This document shows, one piece after another, positions 1 to 24,340 of a DNA stretch of 64,000 bases (positions within the stretch are counted from its first letter, which is position 1; every line of letters begins with the position of its first letter). Below the pieces are notes generated by a model, which ran no database searches, was not told the DNA's origin, and worked only from the letters and a program-made list of their open reading frames with translations. The stretch is from a plasmid. The position numbers and the translations under genes were made by a program. The stretch lies in sequence record NZ_CP067424.1; one strand, 5' to 3'.

Positions 1-120
1 ATGCGGCGGTGCCGGGGGATCAAGTGGAAGCTGTGGCACGGCGACGGCCGTGAGGCCCTGGCCCGGACCGAGAACCTGGCCGATGACGTGGACGGCCTGG
101 AAAGCGATCATCCCAACCTG
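1..120 (+). pseudogene. 3' fragment of a DDE transposase gene (ISKra4/ISNCY-like C-terminal region), cut by the Tn3-family insertion
   Basis: Translates ...IKWKLWHGDGREALARTENLADDVDGLESDHPNL. About 85% nt identical to 5650-5770 of a second copy. Ends exactly at the 5-bp TSD/IR of Tn3-family element A, and the reading frame resumes after the element at 4038. Confidence 0.45.
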
Positions 121-172
121 GGGTTCTAAGCCCAAACCCTCGAAATTTTTGGAAGCTTTGCCGATCAATGGG

Positions 173-3100
173 TTAGCCTAACCTGACGTTCGCCAGCAGG
201 GCTTCCGGGTCGATCGCGTGCTTGCCGCCGCGAAACGTGTAGTGCCCGAGCAAGTGGATATGCTGCCAAGCCACCGGGGAGATTTTCTGCAGCAGTGCGA
301 GTGCTTTGCGGTCGTCCTCCCGGCGGTACCGCTCCAGCAGCGTCGAGAGCAGGACCGAGTTGTAGGCGATGATGACGTTGGCGACCAGCCGGCCGCACTG
401 GTTGCTGATCGCGATCGCGAGGTCGGTCCGCCCGATCAGTTGCTTGCCGCCGCTGACCTGGGTGAGCACCGCGCGCAGCTGGTGGTAGGCCTCAATGCGG
501 TTCTGGGAGCGGTGGACGTCACGCTGCAGCTGTGGGTCGCGGAGGTAATCGAGCGTGTAAAGGCTGCGGATCAGCTTGTCGTACTCGAAGACCGCCTTGC
601 GGGTCCGGTCGTGAGGGGACAGGGCACACAGTTTCCGCACCAGGATGGCCTGGCTCATCTCTTTGAGCCCGAGCGTGGCGACGATCCGGTCGATGCTGGC
701 TTTCTCCGCGACGATCAACGCGCGGTCGATCCGGCCGGCTGGCTGAACCAGACAGTCCTGGTAGTCCTCGATCGGGTTGCCGCAGTACAGGTGCTTGAGC
801 TGTGCTTGCCGGCGGGTGAACCGCGGCGCCAGCTTCAGCCCGAACCAGTGGAGGATGGCGAAGTTGGCGCGGTTGATGCTGTGCATGTCGCCGGTGATGG
901 TAGTCGGTGCGATGTCCGAGGTGTTGTGGTAGCAGATGTCGAAGACGTAGTGGCTTTCATGCTCGTGAGCGCCGATCAGCTCCGTTTCCAGCGGCACGTG
1001 GTTGGCCAGCAGCGTGTAGGCGACGACGCCCCTGCCGGTGCCGAAGTACTTGCGCGAATGCCGCGCTTTGGCTGTCGGCACGGCGACCGAGAACTTCTGG
1101 CCGTCGACGCTGCCGTACAGGACTGCCGGATCGAACGAGTAGAAGGGGAAGATGCCGAGGCCGGCGATGAAGTTGCTGACCCGGTCATTGGCTGCTTTCA
1201 GGGTCGACAGGCGCAGGTGCTGCTGATGGGTCGCCTCCAGGACGTGGTACGGGATGTCGCTGGTCTCGGCCATGCCCAGGTTGCCGTGGTTCATGGCCTG
1301 ACCAAGGATCACGGCCGTCAGGCTGTCGTCGTCGGTAATCCTCTTCGCATAGCGGGGCTGCAGTGGGGTCAGCGCCGACAGAAAGCGGCAGCGCTCGTCC
1401 ACGAAGCGGAAGATATCGGCGATACCGCGCGCCGGCAGCCGGGCATAGAAGGCGGCCTGCAGCGCTTCCTCCTTGTCGACCTTGGGAGTGCGCCACGACA
1501 GGGTCTTGCGCCCGGGGTCGTACTCGAGGTGCTTGAGCTTGCCTTGGCGCAGGTCGCGGTCGAAGATCAACCAAAGTCGATGCAGGTCGGCGCACAAGCC
1601 GTCGAGCGTCGCGTCCACGGGTTGGCGCAACCAGGGACTGTCGAGATCCCGGAGCGCCTCCGCCGCCCGGTCCGACGCGACCAGCTCGTCACCGAAGCGG
1701 CGATGCCGGACGCTGTCGTCCAGGTGGAGTTCGCCGGTGGCGAGGCGCTTGCGGAGCTGCCGGTAGATCCAGAACTCGTAACGGTACCCGCGCAGGCCGG
1801 TCGCCTTGCCATCGTCATCGACGTCGAGCAAATGCGGACGCAGCCGGTCGGGGATGGTGTTTTCCGGGAGCTCGCCGAAGGGCCTTTGGGCGAGGCGCTG
1901 TTGACGGGAAAACACGCCCTTCATCCAACGCAAGGCGGCGAGCCACGGATTGTCCGCCGTGGTGGCCGAGACCTCGAGCGCCATGGCGAGCGGGCGCAGA
2001 TGCTTCCTGCAGCGCGCCGCCGTGCGGTCCACCGCCTGCCAGCGCAGTTCAAGCTGGCTGACCGGCTTTTCGCACAGCCTCTGGCCGGCGCCGAGCATCG
2101 CTTCTCTCGGCAGGATCGTGAAGGCCCGGTGGCGGACGGCCCCGAACGGCGTGGCGTCGTCGACCGTGTCGTCGACATAGAGCAGGAGTACGCGGCCAAT
2201 CCGGGATCCCTCCTGCTGCCGGCCGGCTTGTGCCTGGACGAAGGCGGCCTCCGATTCCTCCTTGGTCTGCCCTTCCATCTGCCCCATGTGGAAACCGAAG
2301 GCCTCGACCAGGTTGTCGGTAAGTTGGCGGAAGCGCTGCCAAGCATAGCACAGCAGGTACAGGTGGGTCTGGCCGGGCTTCAGCCGGCGCAGGTCGTAGA
2401 CCGTGTAGTAATGGGCGAGGCTCGCGTAATAGGCGACGTTCTGCTGCGAGATGTCGAGCTTGGGCAACAGAGTCTTCGCGACCCGGTGCAAGGGCGCCAG
2501 GGTGGTGCGCTTTTGGCGCTCCATCGCCATCATGCGGTAGCCGAAGTGCTTGGCGTCCTGCTTGAGCGCCGCCAGTTCCGAGAGGGTGTCCTCGCGCACG
2601 AGGAGGCCCTGCAGGGCGGCGCGCGCCTCCTCGTCCAGCCCGTCCTCGACAAGGTGTTCCAGGCGTCGGCGTTCCGCCGTGAGCACCTCGCTGATGATGC
2701 CCTGCAGCGTGGTATAACCTGGGCGCACGATGCGCCGGGTGGCCAGGAAGGCCAGCAGTTCCGTCAGGATGAAGGTCGCGGCCACGTCCCGCTTCGCCAG
2801 AAGGCCGGCCCTGCCGACGACCGCCGCCCGGTCCGTGTCCGCCCAGAGCCGATAGCCAAACAACCCGGCGATTTCCCGGCGTTGGGCGTAATGCTCGTTG
2901 GCGCGGATCGGCTGCGGCGTCAGCGCGCTTCCCGGAAAGTAGCGTTCCATCAGGAAGGCGATGTCGCTGGACGGGACGTCGGGCCAGGAGAAGCCGAAGA
3001 AGGCCTGCTTGGCCTTGAAATACCCGATCTGCAGCAGGCACCAGACCTGTTCCGCCAGCCCCTTGCGCTGGTCGACCAGAGCGCGTTCAGCGGCGCTCAG

Positions 3101-3223
3101 GGCGAAGAACTCGGCTCGCTGGAAGTCGTCGAAGTCGGGCAGGCCGTACAGAGCGAGCCTCTCGGCCTCGGAAAGGACGGTCAGCCGCTTGCTGCCGTCG
3201 GCGCGCATCGGTCGGTCGGGCAC
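173..3223 (-). CDS. tnpA: Tn3-family DDE transposase TnpA
   Basis: 1016-aa ORF. N-terminal DUF4158-like region (…TTLQGIISEVLTAERRRL…) and overall length and architecture match Tn3 TnpA. Homologous to the two other TnpA genes in this window. The C-terminus abuts IRL. Confidence 0.9.
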   Translation of the reverse strand: MPDRPMRADGSKRLTVLSEAERLALYGLPDFDDFQRAEFFALSAAERALVDQRKGLAEQVWCLLQIGYFKAKQAFFGFSWPDVPSSDIAFLMERYFPGSALTPQPIRANEHYAQRREIAGLFGYRLWADTDRAAVVGRAGLLAKRDVAATFILTELLAFLATRRIVRPGYTTLQGIISEVLTAERRRLEHLVEDGLDEEARAALQGLLVREDTLSELAALKQDAKHFGYRMMAMERQKRTTLAPLHRVAKTLLPKLDISQQNVAYYASLAHYYTVYDLRRLKPGQTHLYLLCYAWQRFRQLTDNLVEAFGFHMGQMEGQTKEESEAAFVQAQAGRQQEGSRIGRVLLLYVDDTVDDATPFGAVRHRAFTILPREAMLGAGQRLCEKPVSQLELRWQAVDRTAARCRKHLRPLAMALEVSATTADNPWLAALRWMKGVFSRQQRLAQRPFGELPENTIPDRLRPHLLDVDDDGKATGLRGYRYEFWIYRQLRKRLATGELHLDDSVRHRRFGDELVASDRAAEALRDLDSPWLRQPVDATLDGLCADLHRLWLIFDRDLRQGKLKHLEYDPGRKTLSWRTPKVDKEEALQAAFYARLPARGIADIFRFVDERCRFLSALTPLQPRYAKRITDDDSLTAVILGQAMNHGNLGMAETSDIPYHVLEATHQQHLRLSTLKAANDRVSNFIAGLGIFPFYSFDPAVLYGSVDGQKFSVAVPTAKARHSRKYFGTGRGVVAYTLLANHVPLETELIGAHEHESHYVFDICYHNTSDIAPTTITGDMHSINRANFAILHWFGLKLAPRFTRRQAQLKHLYCGNPIEDYQDCLVQPAGRIDRALIVAEKASIDRIVATLGLKEMSQAILVRKLCALSPHDRTRKAVFEYDKLIRSLYTLDYLRDPQLQRDVHRSQNRIEAYHQLRAVLTQVSGGKQLIGRTDLAIAISNQCGRLVANVIIAYNSVLLSTLLERYRREDDRKALALLQKISPVAWQHIHLLGHYTFRGGKHAIDPEALLANVRLG

Positions 3224-3253
3224 GCGGTTGTTTCCATCGGATGGACTGGGCTG

Positions 3254-3368
3254 GGACTTTCCCTATAAAGTGTCTTTTCGGGAAAGTAACCTGTTTCGGA
3301 CCCAGGTAGGGCTTGGTCCGGAAGGCGCCGGCAACCACCGCGCCACTGATCGTTTTCGGGAAAGTCTG
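3254..3368. promoter_or_regulatory. Repeated GGGAAAGT motifs between tnpA and the recombinase gene; candidate recombination (res/IRS-like) site
   Basis: Direct repeats TTTTCGGGAAAGT(aac)CTGTTT at 3275-3296 and 3354-3374, plus an inverted partial copy GACTTTCCC at 3256-3264. This sits in the divergent intergenic position where Tn3-family resolution sites lie. Confidence 0.4.
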
Positions 3369-3374
3369 TTTACC

Positions 3375-3950
3375 GTGCGACCGCCGCCGAAACAACCCAA
3401 TGCCGAGCGCCGCAGCCGGGAGCACTTGACTCCGACCGAGATCGACCGACTGATCACAGCCGCCCAACGGCTCGGACGTCATGGCCACCGCGATGCGACG
3501 ATGATTCTGATCGCCTATCGCCATGGGCTGCGCGTCTCGGAACTGGTCGGCCTGCGGCGCGAGCAGGTAGACCTGAGCCTGGGGCTGCTGCATGTGCGCC
3601 GTCGTAAGAACGGGCTGCCAAGCACCCATCCCCTACGCGGTCCGGAAATCCGAGCCTTGCGCCGGCTGTTCCGCAATCATCCGGACACGCCCTACGTCTT
3701 CGTCTCCGAGCGCAAGGCACCGATGACCGAGGCCACCTTCCGTAAGCTGGTCGCCCGCGCCGGCGAAGCGGCCGGGCTGGGCATGCCGATCCATCCGCAC
3801 ATGCTGCGGCACTCGACCGGCTTCAAGCTGGCCAACGACGGCCAGGACACCCGCGCCATCCAGCATTACCTGGGCCACCGGAACATCCAGCACACCGTCG
3901 TCTACACCCACTTGGCGGCCGATCGCTTCAACGGCTTCTGGGACGACTGA
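3375..3950 (+). CDS. Small tyrosine recombinase, FimB/FimE-like (about 191 aa), probable resolution/inversion recombinase of the Tn3-family element
   Basis: C-terminal HMLRHSTGFKLANDGQDTRAIQHYLGHRNIQHTVVYTHLAADRFNGFWDD closely resembles the FimB/FimE catalytic region (R..H..GHRNI.HTV.YT with a Tyr nucleophile). GTG start at 3375 in the frame of ORF 2961..3950. Confidence 0.7.
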   Translation: MRPPPKQPNAERRSREHLTPTEIDRLITAAQRLGRHGHRDATMILIAYRHGLRVSELVGLRREQVDLSLGLLHVRRRKNGLPSTHPLRGPEIRALRRLFRNHPDTPYVFVSERKAPMTEATFRKLVARAGEAAGLGMPIHPHMLRHSTGFKLANDGQDTRAIQHYLGHRNIQHTVVYTHLAADRFNGFWDD

Positions 3951-4004
3951 AAAACAGCCGAGACAATCAAGCCAGGAAGCCCAACCCATTGAATTTAGAG
4001 GATT

Positions 4005-5087
4005 TCAAAAATTTCGAGGGTTTGGGCTTGGAACCCCAACCTGAAGCGATTCGCCACGGCGGCCGACGAGTTCGCCACCTACATAGTGAGCCAGGCAGCG
4101 CTGCCGCTTCTTGAACGACCGGTACGCGGCGTAGCCGTCGCTGACCAGCCAGCCCAGGAAAGCGTCGCCGATCAGATCGCGGATCTCGTCGGCAGACCGC
4201 GAGCCGATGTGGAAGATGGCGGTGCTCGACGACAGCACGACCCACAGCCAGCGTAGGCGGCCGTGCTGCCTCCACGGGGTCTGATCGGCGTGAATCACGC
4301 CGGCCTGCCGCAGGTCGCCCAACAGATCCTCCACGACTGACTCACAGGCGACGCCGACTTCCCGGATGCAACGGTCGAGCGTGCCGACCGAGAGCGGCAC
4401 GTCGAACCAGACGGCCAGAAACTCGCGGATCCTGGTACGTGACACATGATAGCGGACCGACAGGGCGGCGATGAACGTGGCCAGGGCGGGACCGACCAGA
4501 CAGGCCTCACTCAGCAGCAGATCGCGCGAGCGCCCCGGCACCGTGGAGAGCACGCCAAGGCCGGGCCGCGCGGCGGTCCGAACACCGCAGGCACACTCGA
4601 TCGCATGATAGCGGTGCCGCACGCAGGCGATCCGGATGCCGCCGGCGGCGCGCTCCAGGTCGAGCACGAAGTGGGCGCTGTGACCGCTCTGGCGGTCCCA
4701 CATCTCGAACGGCGTGGCGCACGCGGCGCAGAGGATCGGGTAATGGTTCTCGTCACGCTCGGCCTGAAGAAGCTCGCACCGCCAGATCCCTTTGGTGCCG
4801 CGCTGCTTGCCGGGTTTGCGCCCGGAGCGCGCTGGTGGTTCCGGTGCGGAGGGTGAGGCCGATGGCGCGGGCGGCACCGTGCCGGTCGAGGTTCCCGATG
4901 CCGCGCCGAAGGGGCCGTCGGACGACGGCGGGCGCGACGAGTTGGTCGAGTCCCGGGCCAGCTTCTCCGCCTGCTCGATCGCCAGCGCATGCAGGCGGCA
5001 CAGCAGCTCAACCCGGGCTTCCGGGCTCAACCCCTCGAAGAAGCGGCGGTCCATACCGGAAAGATCAACAGGCCTCTTGCGCGTCAT
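4005..5087 (-). pseudogene. IS66-family transposase (TnpC-like), truncated copy
   Basis: N-terminal leucine-zipper-like MTRKRPVDLSGMDRRFFEGLSPEARVELLCRL, a Cys-rich zinc finger, and the DDE region ADQTPW…GWLVSDGYAAYRS…RCLAHYVGG are typical of IS66 TnpC. Only 360 aa; the 3' end runs into and terminates inside the Tn3 IRR, so the last codons are IR-encoded. No tnpA/tnpB companions are present. Confidence 0.7.
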
Positions 5088-5235: not shown

Positions 5236-5484
5236 TTATGGTGCTGTCTGCATCAGGAAAAGAGGGCGCAGTATTTCCCACTTTCTTCCGGTAGCCTTTT
5301 CAGGTATGGGACGAATACAATGTTCGTATACATCATATCCGTCACGACCTATGCCAACTTGGAGAATTGTGCCGTCACTGAATTCTCCTGCCCATACTAC
5401 ACCTTGAGGCAGCTTTTTATTTTGACGTATTTCATTTAATAAGTCGTCAAGTTTGGTATCAGAAAGCGTTGGAGATGGCGCCAC
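5236..5484 (-). CDS. Hypothetical protein (82 aa) in a low-GC segment
   Basis: ORF in the AT-rich 5100-5560 island, which contrasts with the roughly 67% GC surroundings. No recognisable motifs. Confidence 0.25.
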   Translation of the reverse strand: MAPSPTLSDTKLDDLLNEIRQNKKLPQGVVWAGEFSDGTILQVGIGRDGYDVYEHCIRPIPEKATGRKWEILRPLFLMQTAP

Positions 5485-5564
5485 AATTGTATCCTCAGTT
5501 GATTCGGTTCAGGTCAACACACATATTAATACTAATTTTATCTAAGGATCAAGTCAATATGGTT

Positions 5565-6030
5565 GAATCTGACTTTCTGTTCCGTTGCTACTCGGGACCC
5601 TATGCCAAGGGCCTGGCACACCACAACGCCGAGGACGCCCAGACGATCCAGAACCGGCTCGAGCGGATCAAGTGGAAGCTGTGGCACGGCGACGCCCGGA
5701 AGGCCCTGCGCCGGACCGAGGACCTGGCCGAGGACCTCGACGCGCTGGAGAGCGATTATCCGAACTTGGCGCGCTTCGCCAAGCTATGGTCGAGTTCGCC
5801 GGCTACATCCGCAACAACCACGCCATCATCCCGAACTACGGGGAGCGTCGGCGCTACGGCGAGCCGATCTCGACGGCCTTCGTGGAATCCACGGTCAACG
5901 TCGTGGTCGACAAGCGGTTCGCCAAGAAGCAGCAGATGCAGTGGTCGAAGGTCGGCGCCCACCGGCTGGTCCAGGTCCGAACCCGCACGCTCGACGGCAC
6001 CCTGCGGAAGACCTTCGCGGAGTGGTAGGC
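5565..6030 (+). pseudogene. Second DDE transposase 3' fragment (ISKra4/ISNCY-like), frameshifted
   Basis: Frame A reads …LERIKWKLWHGDARKALRRTEDLAEDLDALESDYPNL. Frame B continues …AGYIRNNHAIIPNYGERRRYGEPISTAFVESTVNVVVDKRFAKKQQMQWSKVGAHRLVQVRTRTLDGTL, the S..N.VV…M.WS..GA…R…L tail typical of these transposases. The frame switch is near 5775. The upstream part of the gene is absent and replaced by low-GC DNA. Confidence 0.5.
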
Positions 6031-6419
6031 GGCCATGGCCGCCAACGACAGCCCAATCCCAGCGGCGGCCGACGCGGCCTGAATGCCCAGGGGTTCTGCA
6101 TGCTCTCTATGGTAGCCGATAGCGCTACGCAGGCATGCGCTACACGATCCCGCGCGGGCCTGGGAGCAATCCCCGGCGGAAGCATGGCCGAGGCGGGCGC
6201 TGTCTGCAACGGGGTACCGGAGATGACCGGACGTTGTGACTGACCAGACGGATAGACGGGCATCATGTCCGCCATCCGCCTCGACATCCCGACGATGATC
6301 CTGGTCGCCAGTTTCGACCGGCGGGATCCCAGCCTGATGCGGACGCGCTGGGCAGACGAGTCGGTTTACCCCATGATCTTGCTCGTTGTACGGCTCCGCT
6401 CCGAACTCGAGGATCATCA

Positions 6420-6951: not shown

Positions 6952-9948
6952 CTATCCGGAACTAGGCTTCCGAAGTGGCCGGAGGGCTCCCTCGGCAACG
7001 GCCTTTGGGAGTTCGAAGGCGTATCGCCCGAGGAAGTTGATGTGCTTGAAGGCAAGCGGAGAGATCCTGGCGACGTCAGCGGGGTCGATCGTCCAGCCCT
7101 CGGTGGCGAGCTGGTCCAGTGCGGCCTGGATGTAGGTGGCGTTCCACAAGGCGATGACGTTGAGGACCAGGCCAAGGGCGCCGAGCTGCTCTTCCTGTCC
7201 CTGCCGGTAGGGTCTCCGGATCTCGCCCCGTTCGCCGTGGCAGACGCGCCGGGCCAGCCGGTGCCGGAACTCATGCCGGTTCAACTGCGTCAGGATGCGC
7301 CGCCGCTTCTCCTCGTCGTGGACGTAGCCGAGCACATGGAGGGTCTTGACGATCCGGCCCAGCTCGGCCAGCGCGCGGGCCAGGCCGGTGGGCCGGTCCT
7401 TGACCTGCAGCATCCGCATCACCGAGCCGGCCTGGACATACCCGAGCCTCAGGGAGCCGGCAAGCCGCAGGAGGTCGTCCCAATGGCGCTCGATGAGGCC
7501 GGTGTCGATGCGATGACGCGGCAGGTCGTCCAGGGGGCCGTAATCGGCATCGCGGTCGATGCGCCACAGGCGGGCGCCGCCGATGTCGGCCAACCGCGGG
7601 CTGAACTGGTAGCCGAGCAGCCAGAACAGGCCGAAGACGCTGTCGGCATAGGCGGCGGTGTCGGTCATGATCTCGGCCGGTTCCAGCTCGGTCTCCTGGT
7701 CGAGCAGCAGTCCCAGGATGAGCAGGCTGTCGCGCAGCGTACCGGGCACGACCACGGCGTTGAGGCCGGTGAACTGGTCGGAGACCAGGTTGTAGTAGGT
7801 GATCCCACGGCCAGCACCGAAGTACTTGGGGTTGGGACCGGCGTGGACGGCGTGGCCCGGGGCCACGAACCGAATGCCGTCGGCCGAGGCGACCTCGCCG
7901 GCTCCCCAGATCCGGGCGATCGGCAGCGCGTTCTGGGCGGCCACCAGGCGCCGGTTGGCGGCGATGGTCTCGGCGCGGATGAAGTTCTGCTGGACCCAGG
8001 ACAGCCGGGCACGGCCGAGTGCCGGCTGGTCGGAACGGACCATCGGCTCGAAGCCGATGTTGCAGGCCTCCGCCACCAGAACGGCGCACAGGCTCATGAG
8101 AAACGCCTCCACCCGCGCTTTTCTCTCGCTGACATGGGTGAAGGCCTCGGCGAACCCGGTGCGCGCGGCGATTTCCAGCAGGATGTCGGGCAGATCGACG
8201 TTCGGCAAGCGGCCCTGGACGGCGGATTGAAGCGCGACCAGGCTGGGCGACCGATCGAGCTTGTCGAGCGGCCTGACGACCAGTTCGTCCTTCCCATCAC
8301 GTGTCTCGATCCGCAGCGCGGCGTTGCCGGCTATCCCGGAGGCCACCTGCCGCCACGCCCGATCGAGCCTCTGCCCCAGGCCGGCCAGCTCCGCTTCGGC
8401 ATCCGCCGACCGGCCGAGGGAGCGGCAGACCGTGAGGCGGGCGCTTTCCCACGCCTCGCCGACCAGCAGCCCGCGCCGGGGATCGGCAAAGCGAAGGCCG
8501 GGCATGATGAACACGTCGCGCCGTTTCAGCGCCCTCCGGAAGGCTTCGAGCACGGCGAAGACATAGGCCTTGCCGTTGATGACCTGCCCGCCGTCGTCGA
8601 GGACGTGGCGTTTCCATGCCGACCCGATCACCCCAGTGGGAGCGCCGGTCATCCCAGCCCCCGTCCAGGTCTTGAGGCCGCGCAGATAATCGAGCGCCTC
8701 CCGCACCGGCTGCCCGCCGGGCGCCGCTCCGATGGTGACGCGGAGCAGGAAACCGGAGAACAGCCGATGGACCCGCCGCCACCTGGCGCGAAGTTCGGCG
8801 TAGCGCGGCGTGTCGGGAGGACAGGCCAGGGTCTCGACCAATGCCATCGCGGCGGTGATGTCGGTTTCGGAGATGGTCGTGAAGAGGGCCTCGCGCCATT
8901 GGTCGAGTGGCAGCTCCTCGCCGCCGATCGCCAACCGGACGACGTCCCTGAGCCTCAGGGCCGCCGCGTCGAGGTCGCGCAAGGTCCGCAGGCGCGCCTT
9001 GCGATGGGCAGTGTCGGCTTCGCTGACAACGTCGGTCACCAGGGCCTCGAACAGCTCCACCGCGTCGTCGAGGGCGGCGGCCTCGAGGGTGCTGAACAGC
9101 GCGGCGAGGGTGGCGGTGCGGCGCGGCTCCGGAAGCGCCAGGACCGCCGAGGGCCGCGCCGCGCGGGCGAACCGTGCCAGGCGCTGGACCGCCGCGGCCG
9201 GGATGGTGCCCGGCGGCCTGGGGACCAAGCCGAGGGACCGGACGGCGTCGATCCGTTCCAGATGCCGGATGAACTCGGTGGGCATGCGCCGGGCCGGTGC
9301 CTTGCGCAGGTCGTCCAGGGTGGACAGGGTTTGGCCGCCCGGCTCGAGCAGGCCCTGGATCCGGGCGCGCTGCCCGTCGTTCAGGCTGCTGGCCAGGACC
9401 CGCCAGAGGCGCCGCTGGGCCCGGTGGCAAATGCGCGCGACGAAGCGTTCGAGCGTCGTGGCGCCGGGCAGGAGGATCTTGTTGGCCGCCAGCCAGGACG
9501 TCGCCCGGTCGAAGAGAAGGCTCGGGCGGTCGTCCCCGGTCCAGGCGAGCGTGTAGAGCCAGCGGGCCAGCCGGAACCGCGTCGCGCCGTCCTCGGCGAA
9601 GTCCCGGAAGCTGTAGCGCTCGCGGATCACGGCCACGTGGCGCCACCGCTGGCGCCTATCGCCATAGGACGCGAGATCCACGTCGCTCCTTTCGCCGAGC
9701 TGCTGGGCGATGTCGGCGATCACCCCGCGCGGCACCTGCCCGAGGTCGTCGAGGAACACCCCCAGGAACCGGACGGTGCCGAGCTGGGCCGCGAAGCCGA
9801 TGCGGTTGTGGGCGCCGCGCAGCAGGGCAATGACCTCGCGGTCGGCGGCATCGAGATGGAAATGGCGGGCCAGCTGCTCCTCATTCGGCTCTCCCGCGTA
9901 GCGGCCATAGCGCTGACGCTGCTCGTCGCTGAGGAAGCGGGTCGCCAT
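6952..9948 (-). CDS. tnpA: Tn3-family DDE transposase TnpA (element B)
   Basis: About 998 aa starting MATRFLSDEQRQRYGRY (the ORF track start at 10023 is probably upstream of the true start). Homologous throughout to the other TnpA copies. Confidence 0.9.
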   Translation of the reverse strand: MATRFLSDEQRQRYGRYAGEPNEEQLARHFHLDAADREVIALLRGAHNRIGFAAQLGTVRFLGVFLDDLGQVPRGVIADIAQQLGERSDVDLASYGDRRQRWRHVAVIRERYSFRDFAEDGATRFRLARWLYTLAWTGDDRPSLLFDRATSWLAANKILLPGATTLERFVARICHRAQRRLWRVLASSLNDGQRARIQGLLEPGGQTLSTLDDLRKAPARRMPTEFIRHLERIDAVRSLGLVPRPPGTIPAAAVQRLARFARAARPSAVLALPEPRRTATLAALFSTLEAAALDDAVELFEALVTDVVSEADTAHRKARLRTLRDLDAAALRLRDVVRLAIGGEELPLDQWREALFTTISETDITAAMALVETLACPPDTPRYAELRARWRRVHRLFSGFLLRVTIGAAPGGQPVREALDYLRGLKTWTGAGMTGAPTGVIGSAWKRHVLDDGGQVINGKAYVFAVLEAFRRALKRRDVFIMPGLRFADPRRGLLVGEAWESARLTVCRSLGRSADAEAELAGLGQRLDRAWRQVASGIAGNAALRIETRDGKDELVVRPLDKLDRSPSLVALQSAVQGRLPNVDLPDILLEIAARTGFAEAFTHVSERKARVEAFLMSLCAVLVAEACNIGFEPMVRSDQPALGRARLSWVQQNFIRAETIAANRRLVAAQNALPIARIWGAGEVASADGIRFVAPGHAVHAGPNPKYFGAGRGITYYNLVSDQFTGLNAVVVPGTLRDSLLILGLLLDQETELEPAEIMTDTAAYADSVFGLFWLLGYQFSPRLADIGGARLWRIDRDADYGPLDDLPRHRIDTGLIERHWDDLLRLAGSLRLGYVQAGSVMRMLQVKDRPTGLARALAELGRIVKTLHVLGYVHDEEKRRRILTQLNRHEFRHRLARRVCHGERGEIRRPYRQGQEEQLGALGLVLNVIALWNATYIQAALDQLATEGWTIDPADVARISPLAFKHINFLGRYAFELPKAVAEGALRPLRKPSSG

Positions 9949-9959
9949 GGTTCGCACAT

Positions 9960-10070
9960 CTCCGGACATTTGCGAGGGCCGGGCGGGATCAGGAAAACCA
10001 ACGGCTTGACCCTCGCAAAACATAGGCGCGAAAGTGCGTCTTTTTGCGATATGTTTTGCGAGGCTGCGGC
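9960..10070. promoter_or_regulatory. Probable res site / divergent promoters of Tn3-family element B
   Basis: Intergenic tnpA-tnpR region with repeated TTGCGAGG / CCTCGCAA half-sites (tttgcgagggc … ccctcgcaaaacata … tgttttgcgagg), as expected for resolvase subsites. Confidence 0.4.
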
Positions 10071-10541: not shown

Positions 10542-10875
10542 CAGTACGCCGTTCCGTTCATGCGCACAGTCCAATACGGCGGACTCGGATGGCAGATGCC
10601 AGTACACTGATGCATACAAAAGATGCACCTGAATCGGCAAAAAGGTAGTCTTTACATGAGCTTGGATGTCGCTCCTTGAATCTTTTGTATGCGTCAGTGC
10701 ACTAGTATTTTTACTAATCAATCTGTAACACCCGCATTTGTGTCCTTGCTATTACCTCGAAAGGAGAATGCGGACAGCGGATCAGCCGCCCGAACGAATG
10801 CGGAACATCAATGATTCATTGCTAAGTGTCGGATTTTGCGGCAAAACTTCCATTTTTCGGCATCACAGGAAGGTC

Positions 10876-11484
10876 ATGCCAAGGAAGCGCGACCCGTCTG
10901 TCTTCACGACATCAGTTTCAGGGATTTCTGATGATGCTTGGGATGTCTTCAGGGGGGAAGTGAGGAGACTTCAAAGACATATCCCGAGTTATACGTTGCG
11001 GCAAGCGCTGGAGCAGTCAATTTATTCCATAAGAGGAGAGATCGAACGGCGCGATGAATATGGATCGCAGTTGATGATATACCCTCTTCCTGAAGGTGAA
11101 AGCAGGCCAGTGTCTATCCAGATAGATAAGAGATTTCGCGAGTATTTACATCATTGCTCAAAGTTAACTGGATACAAACAGAATGTAATTTTACTCAATG
11201 GTATGCTCTTGAATGCTCTGTCCATGAATGATTTGTCGACGGAACACGAGTATGAAGAAGAGAAAGAAACGTTTAGTGGCATGATTGCGGAAGGAAGAAA
11301 TATTATAGGGGAAGGAAATAAAATATTAACTTCCTTAGAAGTGAAAGATTTTCTTAGGCAAATGTATAATGATAAAAAAGATAAAAACATCAAGGATATA
11401 TATTTGAGAATGACTGGCAAGTCACCTCCAAATCCGTCTTCTAGCGGGTATGGTTACATGTCGCATGGGATAAAAACCGCTTAA
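10876..11484 (+). CDS. Hypothetical protein (about 200 aa) in a low-GC island upstream of repA
   Basis: ORF in the roughly 40% GC region 10580-11500. Lys/Glu-rich C-terminus. No recognisable domain. Start chosen at MPRKRDPS; in-frame upstream alternatives exist. Confidence 0.35.
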   Translation: MPRKRDPSVFTTSVSGISDDAWDVFRGEVRRLQRHIPSYTLRQALEQSIYSIRGEIERRDEYGSQLMIYPLPEGESRPVSIQIDKRFREYLHHCSKLTGYKQNVILLNGMLLNALSMNDLSTEHEYEEEKETFSGMIAEGRNIIGEGNKILTSLEVKDFLRQMYNDKKDKNIKDIYLRMTGKSPPNPSSSGYGYMSHGIKTA

Positions 11485-11601: not shown

Positions 11602-12690
11602 GTGCCATCGAAGAAAACGCCGACCGGCTCGCGCGAAGGGGATCAGTACGGTTTCGACCTCTCCGCCTCCCGTGGCCGTGCCATGCGGGAGAAGATGCGC
11701 CAAGCTGCGGAGTCGGCGGACGACAGGGGCGACCTGAAGCCTCTCGGCAGCGCGATCACCCTTCCCGCTCTGACGCCGATCAAGAAGCGCCTGCTGGAAG
11801 CATCTGTCGAGATCAGGGCGGACGAGCCGGAGGAGCTGGCATTCCAGCACACATGCCTGACGCAATGCTCGATGCCTGCCGCCAAGCCGAAACCGGGAGT
11901 GCTGACATGGGAGCGCCGTCAGGGCCGCACCATGCTTCAGGTATCCGCCGGAACGGCGATGAACCCCAAGGGCGGGAAATGGGTGCAACTCGGCCTGCCG
12001 TATGGCCCCAAGGCCCGCCTGCTGCTGATGCACCTGAACAGCGAGGCGATCCGCAGCGGCTCCCCCGTCATTCCGGTGGAAGACAGCATGACGGCGTTCT
12101 TCCGCCGCCTGATGGGCCGGTCTATCGACGGGCGCCAGGTGCGCATGCTGAAGACGCAGCTTTCGGCGCTCGCCGCCGCGACCTTCCGCATGGGTATCGC
12201 CTACGAAGACCATTCCATGCAGATGACCGGCCAAGTGGTCGGAGCCTTCGAGCTTTGGTCGCTGACCGATGAGGGGCAGCGGGTGCTATGGCCAGCCACC
12301 CTGCGCCTGTCGACCGATTATTTTGACAGCCTGAGCCGGTATGCGGTGCCGCTGGATGAGCGGGCTATCGCGGCGCTCGCCTTCTCCGCCGTGGCACTGG
12401 ACATCTATTGCTGGCTGGCGCAGCGCCTGCATCGTATCCCGGTCGGAAGGCAGCAATTCGTACCGTGGACGGCGCTGCTGGAGCAGTTCGGGCAGGGGTA
12501 CAGGGAAATCCGGTTTTTCCGCCGCGACTTCCTGCACCTCCTGCAGCAGGTAAAATCCGCTTACCCTGAAGCGATCTTTGATGCGGACGGCAAGGGCATG
12601 TACCTCACGACCTCGCCGCCGCCTGTCAGAAAGAAGCTGGTGATGCTGCCGGGTGCGAAGACGCTAGACCTGAAGGCGGTGAAAAGTTGA
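11602..12690 (+). CDS. repA: Plasmid replication initiator RepA (alphaproteobacterial RPA family)
   Basis: 362 aa. The central block GKWVQLGLPYGPKARLLLMHLNSEAIRSGSPVIPVEDSMTAFFRRL is characteristic of the 'replication initiator protein A' family of alphaproteobacterial plasmids. GTG start. Followed by iterons. Confidence 0.65.
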   Translation: MPSKKTPTGSREGDQYGFDLSASRGRAMREKMRQAAESADDRGDLKPLGSAITLPALTPIKKRLLEASVEIRADEPEELAFQHTCLTQCSMPAAKPKPGVLTWERRQGRTMLQVSAGTAMNPKGGKWVQLGLPYGPKARLLLMHLNSEAIRSGSPVIPVEDSMTAFFRRLMGRSIDGRQVRMLKTQLSALAAATFRMGIAYEDHSMQMTGQVVGAFELWSLTDEGQRVLWPATLRLSTDYFDSLSRYAVPLDERAIAALAFSAVALDIYCWLAQRLHRIPVGRQQFVPWTALLEQFGQGYREIRFFRRDFLHLLQQVKSAYPEAIFDADGKGMYLTTSPPPVRKKLVMLPGAKTLDLKAVKS

Positions 12691-13597: not shown

Positions 13598-16049
13598 TCA
13601 GACTTCGACCGGCTCGGGCAAGTCGAAGGCGGGCATGGTGCGGTTGACGAAGTAGACCCCACTGGGAACGATATGCCGGCGCTGGAGCGGCCAGACATGG
13701 GCGAGATCCTGGTCGGCGATCGTCATGCCGCCGGTGCGCAGCTCGCTGACGATGCGCGCCATTTGCAAAGTGTTCCACAGCACCACCGCGTTAGACAGCA
13801 GGCCGAGGCAACTCGCCCGGTTCATCATCGCCTCGTAGTCGCTGGTGCGGAACTCGCCCTGATTGGCGAAGAACAGCCAGCGGGCCAGGGCGTGGCGGGA
13901 TTCACCGCGGTTGAGCTGGGCCTGGATGCGCCGGCGCAGCGGCGCGTCGTGGAGGTAGCGCAGAACGTTGCGCGTCTTGACCAGGCGGCCGAGCGTGGTC
14001 AGCGCCTTGGCCACACGATCGTTGGGACCGCCGGCGGTGAGACGCTGCAGCACGACATGCGCCGGCGCCGTGCGGGCCTTGAGCGAGGCCGCGACGCGGA
14101 CGAGTTGGTCCCATTGCTCGATCAGAAGGGTCGTCTCGCTGGTCCCTGCGAACAGCGCGGCGAGATCCTCGGGGATCGCGGCACCCTCGGGCCGCCAGAG
14201 CCGCTGGTCGCTCAGATCCTTGAGGCGCGGCATGAAATCGATGCCCAGGAGATGGCACAGGCCCCACAAGGGTTCGGTGAAGCCGTGGGTGTCGGTGGTG
14301 TGCTGGCGGGGATCGAGGCTGGTATCGTTCTCGAGCAGGCCGTCGAGGACGTAGGTCGCTTCCCGCGGGGCGCAGGAAATGAGCTGGGTGGCGAAGACGC
14401 CGATCCGGTCGCTGACGTGGGTGTAGACGGTGACGGCCTTGTCGTAATGGCCGAAGTAGCGGGGGTGGTAAGCGCCGATCAGGGTGCCCGGCGGGGCCCG
14501 GAAGCGCTGGCCATCCGAGGACGACAGCCGGCCGTCGCCCCAGACCGCGGCGAAATCAACCTGATGGAGATGCTCGACGATCCGGGCGCTGGCGGCCTTC
14601 AGGGTGGCGTCGCGCACCAGCCAGCGCGCGGTCTGCTGGAGATCGGCGGCGGTCAGGTCCTCGACGCTGTCGCCCATGGCGGTCAGGCCGAGGTTGGTGC
14701 CGTGGGCGATCAGGGTGGCGAGCAGGGCACGGTAGGTGTCCTGCGCGCGCGGCTCATAGCCGGCAAGCGGATGGAAGGCGCGGGAAAAGCCGCAGCGCTG
14801 GTCGACCTCGAGCAGAACATCCTCGATCCGGACCCGGGGCATCCGGCTTTCGATCTCGCGGCGCAGATGGCGGACCTCGGGCGACAGCGGCAAGGCATCG
14901 GGCCGGTGGAGACGCAACTGGCCCTGCTCGATGCCGGCGAAGTCGTTGGCCGCCCGCCCGGCGGCAAAGGCGCCGGCGGCGGTTTCGATGGCGCGCGCCA
15001 GATCGGCGAGGTGTTCGGCCGGCCGTTCGGGCAGACCGAGATCGGCGTAGGCGCCGGTTCGGGCGCTCGCCCACAGCCGCTCGTCGAGCACCAGCGACCA
15101 GAAGCCGGCATGGCGCCGGCTGTCGGGCAGATGGAGATCGCCCGAGCGCAGCGCGTCGCGGACCGCCAGGGCGAGCGCAGTCTCCCAGACCGAGCGGCGC
15201 AGCCGGCCGCGCTCGTCGCGCAGCACCGTTCGCCAGCCGGGCGGGACGAAGCCGGTCGGCGCGTCCTCCGGCAGGGTCTTGATCTCACCGCGGTCGAGCT
15301 GGCGAACCAAGTCGATCGCCCGCGGCAGGTCATCGTGACCGGTGTCGGAGGTGAATGGCAGCGACAGGAAGGCCGGCAGGGACTTGCGCAGATCCGGGTA
15401 GCGGGCGAGGACGGCGTCGACCACGCCGCGGCTGTCCTGGGTGGAAACCGCCTCGCAGGCGGCGACCGCGCCCCGCAGCCGCTCGGCCCCGAGGCGGCCG
15501 CGCAGGCCAGCCACGGATTCCTCAGGGTCGCCGGCGAGGACCGCCTTGCCGGTATCGACCAGCGTGAGCAGGCCGTCCTCGGCCGCGCGCCGCAGACGCC
15601 GGGCCTCGGCTTCGGCGGCATGGCGGGCGCGGCGCATCAGGCCGGTCATGTGATTGTCATGGGCCTGCACCAGGTCGTCGAGCAGCCCCTGGCGCCGGTC
15701 GAGCAGAAAGCAGACGAGCAGGCCGTGGCGCTTGTCGGGCGGAAAGCGCCGCAGGGCACGGCCATCGTAGCGCCGGCACAGCTGGGCGAGTTGCTGACGA
15801 ACCCGCTGGGGCACCTCGGCAAGATCAGGCAGATCGGCCAGCATGACCGTGATCTCGTCCAGCCGCTGACAGGCCTCACGGGTGAACCGCCCCATCGACG
15901 CTGCCGAGGGCGTGCGGTAGCGGCCGAGGGAGGCACGGCCCTCCGTACCGGCGTCGTCGGCCAGCTGACCGACCAGCCGGTCGAGGGCCGCGCGCAGGGA
16001 TGAGGGAAGGCGGGCGGCGAGGCGGTTGAACAGGCCGTTCAGGGCCTGG
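13598..16049 (-). pseudogene. tnpA: Tn3-family transposase TnpA of element C, distal (about 815 aa) part, separated from its 5' end by IS21
   Basis: The frame stays open upstream of the annotated Met up to the IS21 boundary (…QTDWGLFTRPIWGSFIRPLHQALNGLFNRLAARLPSSL…). Removing IS21 and one TSD copy rejoins it in frame to 18409..18892 (…VAAITRQ|ALNGLFNRL…), which matches the other TnpA genes. Confidence 0.8.
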
Positions 16050-16113: not shown

Positions 16114-16992
16114 TTATAGGTCGGTGTCTGGCTGGGTAGAGGTCATTTTCGGTGGTCGTCCCCGGCGGCGTGGTTGAGGTTGAGGGGTAGTGATGGATCG
16201 GGTTCGAGTGTTGTCCGGGATCAGGTCGGCGTGGCGGCGGAGCCGGTAGCTGGCTCCCTCGATCTGAACGACAACGGCATGGTGTAGCAGGCGGTCCAGC
16301 AGCGCGGTGGCGACGACGGTGCCGCCGAAGACATCGCCCCATTCGGCAAAGCCGCGGTTCGAGGTCAGGATCATCGCGCCGCGTTCGTAACGGGCATTTA
16401 CCAGCTGGAAGAATAGGTTGCCGCCCCCCGGGATGACGGGCAGATAGCCGATCTCATCGACGATCAGCAACTGGGGCCGGCACAGAAAACGCAGGCGTTC
16501 GCGCAGGGTGCCTTCCCGCTCCGCCTTGGCGAGCGAACTGACGATGTCGGCCAGGGTGGCGAAGTAGACCGAACGACCGGACTTGACCGCCTCGACACCG
16601 AGGGCCAGCGCCAGATGGGTTTTGCCGCAGCCGGGTTGACCGAGGAAATGGACCGCCTCGTGGCGATCGACGAAGTCGAGCTGGGCCAGCGCCATGATGC
16701 GGTCGCGGTCAAGCGAGGGCTGGAAGGAGAAGTCGAACCCGCCCAGGGTCTTGATGTTGATCAGCCGGCCCATCTTCAGCGCGGACCTGACGCGTCGCCC
16801 CTCCCGCAGGGTCAGTTCCTCGCCGAGCAGGGTGTCGATGGCCTCCAGGGCCGAGATCTCGCCGCGTTCGATCCGCCGCAGGATATGCTCCAGCACTTCG
16901 AGCGCGCGCGGCATGTTGAGACCGACCAGGTGAGCGCGGATGCGGTCGAGCGTGGCGGGGCTGGCCGCCGGATCGAGGGTGGTTGCGGTCAT
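16114..16992 (-). CDS. istB: IS21 helper ATPase IstB
   Basis: Walker A GQPGCGKTHLALALG and an AAA+ IstB-type sequence. 4-bp overlap with istA. Confidence 0.85.
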   Translation of the reverse strand: MTATTLDPAASPATLDRIRAHLVGLNMPRALEVLEHILRRIERGEISALEAIDTLLGEELTLREGRRVRSALKMGRLINIKTLGGFDFSFQPSLDRDRIMALAQLDFVDRHEAVHFLGQPGCGKTHLALALGVEAVKSGRSVYFATLADIVSSLAKAEREGTLRERLRFLCRPQLLIVDEIGYLPVIPGGGNLFFQLVNARYERGAMILTSNRGFAEWGDVFGGTVVATALLDRLLHHAVVVQIEGASYRLRRHADLIPDNTRTRSITTPQPQPRRRGRPPKMTSTQPDTDL

Positions 16993-18263
16993 GGGACACC
17001 CTGCTGGCTGGCGAGACGGCGGCCGATCGCGTCGTAGATGGCCAGCGAACGGGGTGTCACCGTGCTGCCCCGAGGCTCGGGCCTGGCCTCCTCCCGGGCC
17101 GTCCTGCTGTTGGCCGGCGGCGGCTGGGTGCGGTGACCGGGAGCGATCCGGCGCTGGCCGCGGCCTTCCTGTGCCGGATGGGAGGCGATGAGGATGCCGT
17201 CCTCCAGGATGTTGACCGCGCCGGCGGTAATCTGCACCTCGACGGTCCGCCGGCGGGTGCTGTCGGGCACGGAGTAGAGATTGCCGGCGACGGAGACCAT
17301 GCCGTCGCGGGTGATGCGGCGCTCGAGTGCCAGCACGGTGTTGAAGGGACCGGCCGGGAGGGCCTTGAGGTGATCGCGCTCCTCGGCGAAATGCTCGACG
17401 ACGACACGCTGGGTGGTGGCGTGCAGGCGAACGTTGGCGACCTGGTCCAGCCACTGGACGAACTGGGCGTTCAGGTCGTCCAGATTGCGGAAGGTGCGGG
17501 CGAGGAAGAAGTCCTCCCGGACATAGCGGAAGGGCCGCTCCACCTTGCCCTTGGTCTGTGCCCGGTAGGGCCTGCAGGCCTTCGGCAGGAAACCGTAGCA
17601 GGCGGCCAGATCGAGGAGCTTGGCATTGTAGGCGATCCCCTTGGCCGGCTGGTCGGGGTCCTCGACGTCACCGAGCACGGCGGTCTTCATGCGGTCATAA
17701 AGGATCTGCTCGGGCACGCCGCCGAACGCCTCGAAGGCGGCGATGTGGCACCGGAGCACGGTCGGCAGATCCTGGCGGGCGACGAAGCGGGCCCACATCA
17801 TGCGGCTGTGGCCGAGCACGATCGAGAACAGCCAGACGATCCGCTCGACGTCGGGCTGGTCGGTGAACACGGTCTTGAAGAAGGCGAAATCGACCTGGGC
17901 CTGCTTGCCGGGCGGTGTCTCGAACCGGCGCTCGAACTGTGTCTCGGGCCTGGGCCGGACGGTACGCAGGAAATCCTTCAGCACGGTATAGCCGCCCTGG
18001 TAGCCGAGCGCGCGGATGTCCCGGAGCAGACGTCGGCCGCTGAGTTCCGGGAAGGCCTGGAGGCGCTCCCGCAGATAGGGTTCAAAGGGGCCGACAAGGG
18101 TCTGTCGCGGGGGCCGCGGCGTGTAGGCGGGCGGCTCCAGCCCCTTGGCGATGTACTTTCGGATGGTCTTGCGGTCCAGGCCGGTCCGGCGCGCGATTGC
18201 CGACACGCTCAGCCCCTGGCGGGCGAGATCGAGAATCATGACGAGTTCCCCAAGTGTGACCAC
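16989..18263 (-). CDS. istA: IS21 transposase IstA
   Basis: N-terminal HTH (LSVSAIARRTGLDRKTIRKYI) and a DDE core (…HSRMMWARF…QILYDRMKTAV…) typical of IstA. 424 aa. Confidence 0.85.
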   Translation of the reverse strand: MVTLGELVMILDLARQGLSVSAIARRTGLDRKTIRKYIAKGLEPPAYTPRPPRQTLVGPFEPYLRERLQAFPELSGRRLLRDIRALGYQGGYTVLKDFLRTVRPRPETQFERRFETPPGKQAQVDFAFFKTVFTDQPDVERIVWLFSIVLGHSRMMWARFVARQDLPTVLRCHIAAFEAFGGVPEQILYDRMKTAVLGDVEDPDQPAKGIAYNAKLLDLAACYGFLPKACRPYRAQTKGKVERPFRYVREDFFLARTFRNLDDLNAQFVQWLDQVANVRLHATTQRVVVEHFAEERDHLKALPAGPFNTVLALERRITRDGMVSVAGNLYSVPDSTRRRTVEVQITAGAVNILEDGILIASHPAQEGRGQRRIAPGHRTQPPPANSRTAREEARPEPRGSTVTPRSLAIYDAIGRRLASQQGVP

Positions 18264-18408
18264 CCACGCCCTCCCTCAATCGACTGAGGGGATTATGGGC
18301 CAAGGGCGGCTACACGGTTCCGAGGCGCCTGCTCCGGAGCCGTGCCGTTGCGTCAGCCTGGGGAAAGTTCATCCGCCCGATCTGAGGAGTATTCACCCGG
18401 CACTTACA

Positions 18409-18892
18409 CCTGGCGGGTGATGGCGGCGACCAGCCGTTCGAGCGTGGTGCGGGCGGGCAGGATGACCTTCGCCGCGGACAGCGACGCTTCCGCCCGCTGG
18501 ATCAGGTCGGCGGTCGTCAGGCCATCGGCGGCGACCGCCGAGAGATCGGTCTCCAGACGGTTTTGGGCGTCGGTGGAAAACACCGTGAACCCGAGGTGGT
18601 CGCGCACCCGGGCGCGGATGGCGCTGTCGGTCGGCTGGCGGGCCAGGGAAGCCAGCCGGGCCGGTGGATCAATCCCGAGCCGGCGGGCCAGGTGGATGAC
18701 AGCGTCCCGCGGAACCTGCTCCGGGTCGTCGATGAACCGGCCGGTGCGGCGCACGCCGCACAGGTGCAGCGCGGTCCACAGGCGGTTGTCCGGACCGCGG
18801 GCGCGCATGACCTCCCGGAGGTCGGCCTCGTCGAGTGCCCAGTCGTTCAGGATCCGGTCCGGGTCGATCTCCTCCGGAGCGGGCTCAGCCAT
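18409..18892 (-). pseudogene. tnpA: Tn3-family TnpA of element C, N-terminal (DUF4158-like) part, separated from the rest by IS21
   Basis: MAEPAPEEIDPDRILNDWALDEADL…ILPARTTLERLVAAITRQ aligns with the N-termini of the other TnpA copies. Ends at the IS21 boundary. Confidence 0.8.
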
Positions 18893-23926: not shown

Positions 23927-24296
23927 ACACATATTTCAGAAAATAGCACCTGCTCAAAATAGGGTATGTGAAAGCGTGTAGAAGAAGCAAACTACCCATC
24001 TGTAAGGCTATGAGCGTAATGCGCTATAAAGAGTATCCTGAACGATAACCTTCGAAGAGCTGCTCGCCGCGGCGAATGCCGGCGACGCCAGGACCTCGGG
24101 ACAGTGGACGCCGACAGCCTGTAAGACCTGGCGGGAGGCAGAGCCGGAAGAAGCTCGCCTGCTGGAAGCGGCCTGGGCATGGGAACTCGCGAACGACCGC
24201 CGAGCACAGCCGCGCGACCTGGTCGAGGTCAGTCAGGCAGCGCCGCCAGGAGATGGACGAAGCCACGGTTGCAGCGAGGCAAGGGTAGAAAATGGC

Positions 24297-24340
24297 ACCT
24301 TCAAGGTGGCAAAGATCTTGACGCGCCACCTTGAAGGTGC
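24297..24340. promoter_or_regulatory. Two MqsA-type operator palindromes CACCTT(C/G)AAGGTG flanking a TTGACG -35 upstream of mqsR
   Basis: Palindromes at about 24297-24309 and 24328-24340 match the ACCT-N(2-4)-AGGT MqsA operator consensus. Two copies as in the E. coli mqsRA promoter. Confidence 0.55.

Follow-up and report, generated by a model that had tools for sequence, protein, structure and literature searches.

A stretch of 64,000 nucleotides of plasmid DNA (sequence record NZ_CP067424.1; hereafter the window) carries, close to its first base, a Tn3-family transposon of 3918 bp (120-4037), in which the transposase gene tnpA stands back to back with a gene for a FimB/FimE-like tyrosine recombinase and the two are separated by a putative recombination site (table 1). 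The transposon begins with GGGGTTCTAAGCCC and ends with GGGCTTGGAACCCC, and the pentamer AACCT lies immediately outside both ends. The 38-bp terminal repeats agree at 33 of their outer 35 positions. The Tn3-type transposase, the ~38-bp ends beginning with GGGG and the 5-bp duplication are all in place, and the complete Tn3-family element with 38-bp repeats and an AACCT duplication that a first-pass annotation had described was found in the sequence. That annotation had set the limits at 117-4042; the right limit was correct, but on the left one copy of AACCT was clipped, the true start being 115.

A megablast search against PLSDB revealed two further copies of the element, 99.9-100% identical, on plasmids pTT6-1 and pTT6-5 of Skermanella sp. 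TT6. In these copies homology ends at the same bases as in the window, and the flanks read TTTCC/TTTCC and AGCAT/AGCAT. Because the copies stop at the same bases with different 5-bp duplications, the boundaries, the duplication and the recent mobility of the transposon are established, and the perfect duplication backs the earlier proposal that the element arrived by simple insertion. The window belongs to a replicon other than pTT6-1 and pTT6-5, which is Skermanella-like and plasmid-like; outside the element, its identity to known Skermanella plasmids is only ~80%. Both our reading of the open reading frames and the annotation of the pTT6 copies by the Prokaryotic Genome Annotation Pipeline (PGAP) gave tnpA and the recombinase gene as the only genes of the element, with no passenger. 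Ends like the one at 120-157 also delimit related elements and Tn5501-like transposons. Internal to both 38-bp repeats, a subterminal 10-bp block (TCAATGGGTT) is present in inverted orientation at 165-174 and 3983-3992.

Table 1. Features of the Tn3-family transposon and of its putative recombination site (window coordinates).
Feature	Position	Strand	Basis or remark
Left target-site duplication, AACCT	115..119		Same pentamer at 4038-4042; the pTT6 copies carry TTTCC or AGCAT there
Left terminal inverted repeat, 38 bp, GGGGTTCTAAGCCCAAACCCTCGAAATTTTTGGAAGCT, on the side of the tnpA 3' end	120..157	+	34/38 match to right end
tnpA, Tn3-family DDE transposase, 1011 amino acids from the ATG at 3208	173..3208	-	Matches to NF033527, Pfam and 7QD8
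Divergent intergenic region, holding the putative recombination site and presumably both promoters	3209..3374		Alignment of 18 elements
Core left arm IR1, ACTTTCCCTATAA	3256..3268	+	Inverted copy of the right arm; near-invariant in 18 elements
6-bp center AGTGTC, predicted crossover or overlap region	3269..3274	+	Variable between elements, flanking arms kept
Core right arm IR2, TTTTCGGGAAAGT	3275..3287	+	Alignment and arm search
Accessory direct half-site DR, TTTTCGGGAAAGT	3353..3365	+	Begins 78 bp after IR2; ends 9 bp before the recombinase start
FimB/FimE-like tyrosine recombinase, 191 amino acids, GTG start, catalytic domain only	3375..3950	+	PF00589 and pairwise comparisons
Right terminal inverted repeat, 38 bp	4000..4037	-	34/38 match to left end
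Right target-site duplication, AACCT	4038..4042		Repeat of the 115-119 pentamer

The transposase is a typical member of its family, with 741 bits to NCBIfam NF033527 (cutoff 500), the Pfam domains DDE_Tnp_Tn3 (PF01526) and DUF4158 (PF13700), and a match to the structure of the Tn4430 TnpA (7QD8, E 6e-34). Its open frame extends past the ATG at 3208 to a GTG at 3223, and it is 3208 that matches the start annotated by PGAP in the pTT6 copies. The divergent gene on the plus strand encodes the 191-amino-acid FimB/FimE-type recombinase that the first-pass annotation had recognized. The sole Pfam match of this protein is the catalytic domain PF00589, and the serine resolvase domain PF00239 is absent from the element. 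Its best NCBIfam models are FimB and FimE, described as 'tyrosine-type DNA invertase' (PRK09870 and PRK09871), and the scores of 168 bits (cutoff 221) and 152 bits (cutoff 222) both lie below the cutoffs; the Xer models TIGR02224 and TIGR02225 yielded ~99-115 bits against cutoffs of 330-335. In pairwise comparisons, the recombinase aligned end to end with FimB (42% identity, 159 bits) and FimE (42%, 144 bits) of Escherichia coli, with XerD in the catalytic domain only (31%, 75 bits), and with TnpI of Tn4430 over 145 residues (26%, 47 bits). In a neighbor-joining tree (no support values) the recombinase family was sister to FimB/FimE. The phylogenetic check that had been suggested for this protein therefore grouped it with FimB and FimE, and not with TnpI or XerD.

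The predicted active-site residues R53, K78, H142, R145, H168 and Y177 are all present, and the same R-K-H-R-H-Y set is kept in 84 of 85 aligned sequences, the lone exception deviating at two positions. Ahead of the catalytic arginine there are 52 residues, compared with 46 in FimB, 40 in FimE, 144 in TnpI and 147 in XerD; therefore, the recombinase lacks a core-binding domain. A longer recombinase frame of 329 amino acids (2961-3950) was also considered, and was ruled out by in-frame stops that occur in several relatives 1-20 codons 5' of the conserved recombinase start. These stops, together with the fact that 191 amino acids is the commonest length among the 120 closest homologue clusters, indicated that the short form is real. 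An AlphaFold2 model computed from a shallow alignment of 21 close homologues, all at least 80% identical, was unusable (mean predicted local distance difference test score 48, predicted template modeling score 0.44). By these comparisons the recombinase falls within the Fim branch of the tyrosine recombinases; we did not file it as FimB or FimE, because it falls below the curated Fim cutoffs and its site does not have the architecture of an inversion site.

The intergenic region contains one 13-bp motif three times. Its inverted copy pairs with the first direct copy to give a 13-6-13 core site, and two 13-bp inverted arms around a 6-bp center are the standard anatomy of a tyrosine-recombinase core, by analogy with which 3269-3274 is predicted to be the crossover region. 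The third copy stands apart as a half-site, with a conserved GCCAAnnATC extension on its 5' side. The first-pass annotation had noted the two direct copies of TTTTCGGGAAAGT and the inverted one, which we confirmed; the trailing CTGTTT that it had included in the direct repeats proved unconserved in relatives. A search of the whole 64-kb window, with up to 3 mismatches allowed for the core, returned just three such arms and one core site, and no inverted partner arm beside the half-site.

We aligned the intergenic regions of 18 elements whose TnpAs are 46-86% identical to each other and whose hosts range from GC-rich Rhodospirillales (Alphaproteobacteria) to AT-rich Legionellales. The invariant columns fell mostly within the three arms and the remainder of the region was unconserved; the 6-bp center differed from element to element, and the motif spacings of 24 bp and 78 bp were constant. 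Palindromes do occur in the 65-bp spacer, at positions that differ between elements. Among 80 loci encoding relatives of the recombinase (one genome per species), the strict tripartite pattern, searched with a tolerance of 2 bases either way in spacing, was present in 28, in every case on the strand of the recombinase gene and directly upstream of it, compared with no match in 20 shuffles of all 80 loci; thus, the site is beyond chance. RNAalifold recovered from the intergenic region the DNA palindrome of the core arms only, without covariation. An RNA element was therefore discarded, since the palindrome showed no compensatory changes, and the conservation acts on sequence, as expected of a protein-binding site.

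At about 30 of the 80 loci a Tn3-family transposase gene lies within 6 kb of the recombinase gene, mostly adjacent to it and in a few cases displaced or interrupted, and in the set of 80 no neighbor besides TnpA was conserved. Recombinases with at least 78% identity are nearly all accompanied by a divergent tnpA, and a Legionellales group in which the recombinase is ~70% and TnpA ~50% identical is also divergent. Several relatives are complete elements with similar terminal repeats, among them three with a delimited 5-bp duplication of their own: L003 (3913 bp, duplication ACTAT), L010 (3898 bp, ATCTT) and L012 (3933 bp, TTGTT). In the 5051-bp L031, another of these relatives, from a metagenome-assembled genome of Paracaedibacteraceae, a passenger open reading frame of 278 amino acids (4132-4968) separates the recombinase gene from the right end; therefore, the family is able to carry cargo.

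In a gammaproteobacterial subgroup (L033, L043-L046) the layout of the site is kept with a degenerate right core arm (ATAATGGGGGTGT); the site lies ~180 to 60 bp upstream of the start of the tblastn match, with an ATG between core and half-site, and the half-site may lie inside a longer coding region. At L008 and L018, the recombinase gene, the half-site and the right terminal repeat are present, and the upstream core site and tnpA are missing. These two loci may have arisen by deletion or through recombination at the core.

The recombinase gene beside tnpA differs among close relatives of the transposase. The nearest catalogued TnpAs (60-62% identical) belong to plasmid-borne Tn5501-like elements with a colinear serine tnpR. 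We examined the neighborhoods of nine metagenomic homologues, 65-72% identical to the TnpA encoded at 173-3208: six (P0184, P0203, P0207, P0227, P0182 and P0195) have a divergent serine resolvase gene (PF00239) in the same slot, two (P0128 and P0165) have a colinear one, and P0137 (TnpA 71%) has a gene for a divergent 191-amino-acid PF00589 protein. The TnpR-bearing TnpAs of this set are 65-75% identical to module-bearing TnpAs, and the TnpR and tyrosine-module types were interleaved both in the TnpA identity matrix and in a neighbor-joining tree (no support values). In particular, the TnpA of L012, which carries the tyrosine module, is 82% identical to that of a TnpR-bearing Klebsiella element and 57-61% identical to other tyrosine-module TnpAs, and the TnpA of P0128, which carries TnpR, is 72-75% identical to tyrosine-module TnpAs. 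Because TnpAs that are 65-82% identical bear either one at the same place, we concluded that TnpR and the tyrosine module have been repeatedly swapped. This reciprocal replacement, repeated at a single locus among closely related transposases, is our strongest argument for a shared function of the two modules.

The module was also found with transposases of two other lineages. At L026 (Chitinophagaceae) and L038-L040 (Legionellales, Berkiella), the site and the recombinase gene lie colinear upstream of tnpA and within the elements' own terminal repeats (elements of ~4.05 and ~4.13 kb), and the TnpAs are 16-20% identical to that of the window. Site and recombinase are thus shared by unrelated TnpAs, and the module therefore moves among at least three transposase lineages. 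The terminal inverted repeats of L038 (694-899 and 4618-4824) and L040 (2-216 and 3913-4128) are unusually long, at ~200 bp, and hold extra motifs resembling the recombinase arms (TTTCGAGAAAGA and TCTTTCCCTA). TnpI-binding sites lie near the ends of Tn5401, and the arm-like end motifs of L038 and L040 are similar to that arrangement.

Taken together, these results make it probable that the element is an autonomous, recently active and minimal Tn3-family transposon, in which the Fim-type recombinase and the site at 3256-3365 form a cointegrate-resolution module that has replaced TnpR/res. Elements of the Tn3 family transpose replicatively via a cointegrate. In the proposed pathway, TnpA would act on the 38-bp ends, and replicative transposition would generate the 5-bp duplication; when donor and target are separate molecules, the product would be a cointegrate that holds the transposon twice, as direct repeats. 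In each copy, a pair of recombinase monomers would occupy the inverted 13-bp arms of the core, the cores would synapse, and strand exchange over the 6-bp center would proceed via a Holliday junction, so that donor and target would part with one transposon copy each. A further monomer at the half-site, 78 bp off, would probably shape the synapse to favor deletion between direct repeats, a role modeled on that of DR1-DR2 in the Tn4430 IRS and of sites II-III in res. The same bound monomer would probably also repress the divergent promoters of the recombinase gene and tnpA; position is what suggests this autoregulation, because a consensus scan of 3100-4100 gave no promoters or terminators.

The sequences show the anatomy and mobility of the element, the conserved site, the intact catalytic residues and the interchange with TnpR; from these we infer that the recombinase binds the site, crosses over within the center, resolves cointegrates with some selectivity and controls its own expression. 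Several points weigh against this reading. The characterized relatives FimB and FimE are invertases and not resolvases, and they need host factors. The site has a single accessory half-site, compared with two accessory motifs in the IRS; therefore, its resolution selectivity is uncertain. Simple insertions could also be produced through resolution mediated by host RecA, and three clean copies of the element are no proof that the module works. In addition, a Tn3 transposase is absent from the surrounding 6 kb of many distant homologues of the recombinase (55-72% identical), and because some of them keep the tripartite site, among them a variant with a degenerate right arm, the module is not exclusive to Tn3 elements. 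Such solo pairs of site and recombinase, with no Tn3 transposase within 6 kb, were seen at L028, L048, L052, L053 and L080, with the site upstream of the recombinase at about 6001 (3207 in L080); their neighbors include a STAND NTPase in L048 and an intein-containing protein in L052.

We compared the module with the known systems. Among known Tn3-family modules, TnpI with its site IRS is the closest in organization. Lima-Mendez et al. (2020; PMC7157771) list TnpI for Tn4430, Tn5401 and TnBth4 only. The IRS of Tn4430 is 116 bp long, with an IR1-IR2 core and directly repeated DR1-DR2 motifs beside tnpI, and these accessory motifs confer resolution selectivity (PMC2847244). In both systems, a tyrosine recombinase of a Tn3-family element has a ~110-116 bp internal site directly upstream of its gene, with two inverted motifs as the core and direct accessory copies of the same motif. 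The order site-recombinase-tnpA at L026 and L038-L040 is also that of Tn4430 (IRS-tnpI-tnpA), as well as the layout of Tn21. However, the two recombinases are 26% identical, the ~95-residue N-terminal domain of TnpI is absent from the 191-residue protein, and in the window a single accessory motif is set 65 bp away from the core and the recombinase gene is divergent from tnpA. Thus, the recombinase may work like TnpI on IRS, with homology limited to the shared catalytic fold. TnpR/res is linked to the present element through its closest transposases (60-62% identical among catalogued plasmid elements and 65-72% among metagenomic ones), the similar terminal repeats and the same slot; it differs in using a serine recombinase (PF00239) at a three-subsite res, whereas here a PF00589 enzyme is paired with a core plus half-site and, as a tyrosine system, would use Holliday-junction chemistry.

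FimB and FimE, of the E. coli fimS switch, are 42% identical to the recombinase over the full length, consist like it of a catalytic domain alone (~190-200 residues), and have the same set of active-site residues. The differences are scores of the recombinase below the curated cutoffs, one core here, compared with two inverted repeats around an invertible segment, no fimbrial context, and a predicted reaction of deletion or resolution rather than inversion. The TnpS+TnpT/rst system of Tn4651 and TnXax1 likewise comprises a tyrosine-recombinase module with its site between divergent genes (PMC7157771). It requires TnpT, for which there is no such gene here, and on this basis, without comparison of TnpS itself, we set it apart. 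TnpS is Cre-like, and no Cre-type chain appeared among the PDB sequence matches of the recombinase. XerC/XerD at dif and the tyrosine recombinases of plasmid multimer resolution have in common with the module the catalytic fold and residues, inverted arms, and, as predicted for the module, deletion between direct repeats, and the dif core consists of inverted arms around a 6-bp center; the recombinase differs from them in its 31% identity to XerD, the missing core-binding domain, and its nature as a single protein encoded beside its own site on a transposon. Tn4655, a class II transposon of NAH7, also carries a tyrosine recombinase named TnpI. This part of NAH7 has a single annotated integrase (415 amino acids), possibly the Tn4655 TnpI, which showed no similarity to the recombinase.

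Lima-Mendez et al. (2020; PMC7157771) recognized only TnpR, TnpI and TnpS+TnpT as resolvase types among 190 Tn3-family members, and the statement of the first-pass annotation that a Fim-type recombinase is not among the known modules agrees with this survey. We lean, by a narrow balance, toward the view that the module represents a fourth, unrecognized class of Tn3 cointegrate resolution, which would combine a 191-residue Fim-type recombinase without core-binding domain with a ~110-bp core-plus-half-site, would have repeatedly displaced TnpR/res, and would have been acquired by at least three lineages of TnpA in Alphaproteobacteria, Gammaproteobacteria, Bacteroidota and other phyla. A prior description of the module, for example in ISfinder, TnCentral or a 2015 review of the Tn3 family, is conceivable and in our judgment unlikely. 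The module is abundant in public data, where at least 8000 candidates were scored, all of them matching, and many homologues lie on ~4-kb contigs; curators may therefore have met it. The recombinases are labeled at source as 'type 1 fimbriae regulatory protein FimB/FimE', 'integrase' or 'XerD'; however, among the closest TnpA homologues listed the source names are generic, and none has an IS or Tn designation. The 190 members of the 2020 survey, taken from ISfinder and the literature, contain three resolvase types. In literature full text, a scope outside which ISfinder, TnCentral and the 2015 review lie, no paper was found that links a recombinase of Fim type to the Tn3 family; the search for a catalogued element that had been recommended earlier thus returned none within this scope. 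ISLdr1, considered as a catalogued Tn3-type insertion sequence of Legionella, was ruled out as an ISKra4-group element.

With respect to function, the module could also be cargo, that is, a multimer-resolution or stability system of the plasmid or a regulator of tnpA, while cointegrates are resolved by homologous recombination of the host. The solo pairs of recombinase and site outside recognizable Tn3 elements would fit such a role, as would the plasmid-like DNA on which the window copy and the pTT6 copies lie. However, the module fills the exact TnpR/res slot of sister elements and has been repeatedly exchanged there, and it resides inside the terminal repeats of three TnpA lineages in elements of 3.9-4.1 kb without other cargo. 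Moreover, the chemistry by which a site-specific system resolves plasmid multimers would serve for cointegrates too, and this alternative, which we regard as distinctly improbable, therefore differs in emphasis more than in mechanism.

Besides resolution, for which the comparative evidence is good, the first-pass annotation had suggested an invertible-promoter module, in which a Fim-style invertase would flip a promoter segment inside the element and switch the expression of tnpA or of its own gene. The fimS invertases FimB and FimE are indeed the nearest characterized relatives and provide the best NCBIfam models, and the space between two divergent genes is a sensible place for a promoter switch. 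Inversion, however, requires two complete inverted sites, and the window has one core and a third arm without a partner. The region was in one orientation in the three Skermanella copies and in all 18 aligned relatives, and the protein scored below both Fim cutoffs. The element also has no fimbrial or other switchable cargo, and an inversion switch is further disfavored because there is no passenger gene to control; we consider such a switch very improbable. Least credible of all is an integrase that would give the element another route of movement, by site-specific integration and excision of a circular form at the core: a recombinase gene beside its own core-plus-arm site does recall the int-attP layout of integrative elements, but all bounded copies end at Tn3-type repeats with 5-bp duplications in unrelated targets, none ends at a split core, and in each copy an intact core lies inside the element.

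The transposon was inserted into a fragment of an ISKra4-family transposase gene (window 1-119 and 4043-4085); once rejoined, its flanks give the reading ...GLESDHPNL|KRFATAADEFATYI, which aligns with NF033572 positions 308-359. This fragment is abutted by an IS66-family transposase fragment on the minus strand (4086-5087; NF033517, 106 bits, below cutoff), and a second ISKra4-like C-terminal fragment lies at ~5585-6028 (within 5469-6122; 102 bits). The ISKra4 and IS66 fragments make up a cluster of insertion-sequence remnants. A second full-length Tn3-family transposase (6952-10023, minus strand; NF033527, 918 bits) is ~25% identical to the TnpA of the element over the aligned C-terminal half; no partner resolvase was identified for it, and the neighboring open reading frame (10738-11484) had no Pfam match. 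Within 13598-15895 and 16114-18263 (both on the minus strand), a third Tn3-family transposase, without the N-terminal DUF4158 part, adjoins istB-like and istA-like genes of IS21 type, by which it may have been truncated. Further along, a two-domain XerC/XerD-like recombinase of 312 amino acids (18885-19823, minus strand) scored below the Xer cutoffs and is 31% identical to the Fim-type recombinase; a stray GGGAAAGT occurs at 18361. The window also encodes a RepA_C replication protein (11602-12690, plus strand), and type IV secretion genes in 24000-30000 are ~80% identical to those of Skermanella plasmids; the DNA is probably that of a plasmid or conjugative element without an entry in PLSDB.

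The Tn3 family is a main vehicle of resistance, catabolic and virulence genes, and it is modular, being built from a transposase, a resolution module and cargo. If the module described here is indeed a fourth resolution system, it would be among the smallest natural resolvase systems, and its recombinase would be the first Fim-type enzyme dedicated to deletion over inversion. It would also offer a compact pair (191 amino acids plus ~110 bp) in which to study how 13-bp arms are recognized without a core-binding domain and how resolution selectivity is achieved, and such a recombinase-site pair might be a possible tool for genome engineering. The many copies of the module that are independent of Tn3 elements would raise the question of their role. 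For the family itself, a fourth system would extend the catalogue of resolution modules and would improve the annotation of genes now labeled FimB/FimE, 'integrase' or 'XerD', and it would document that a tyrosine recombinase has repeatedly taken the place of a non-orthologous serine recombinase at one locus.

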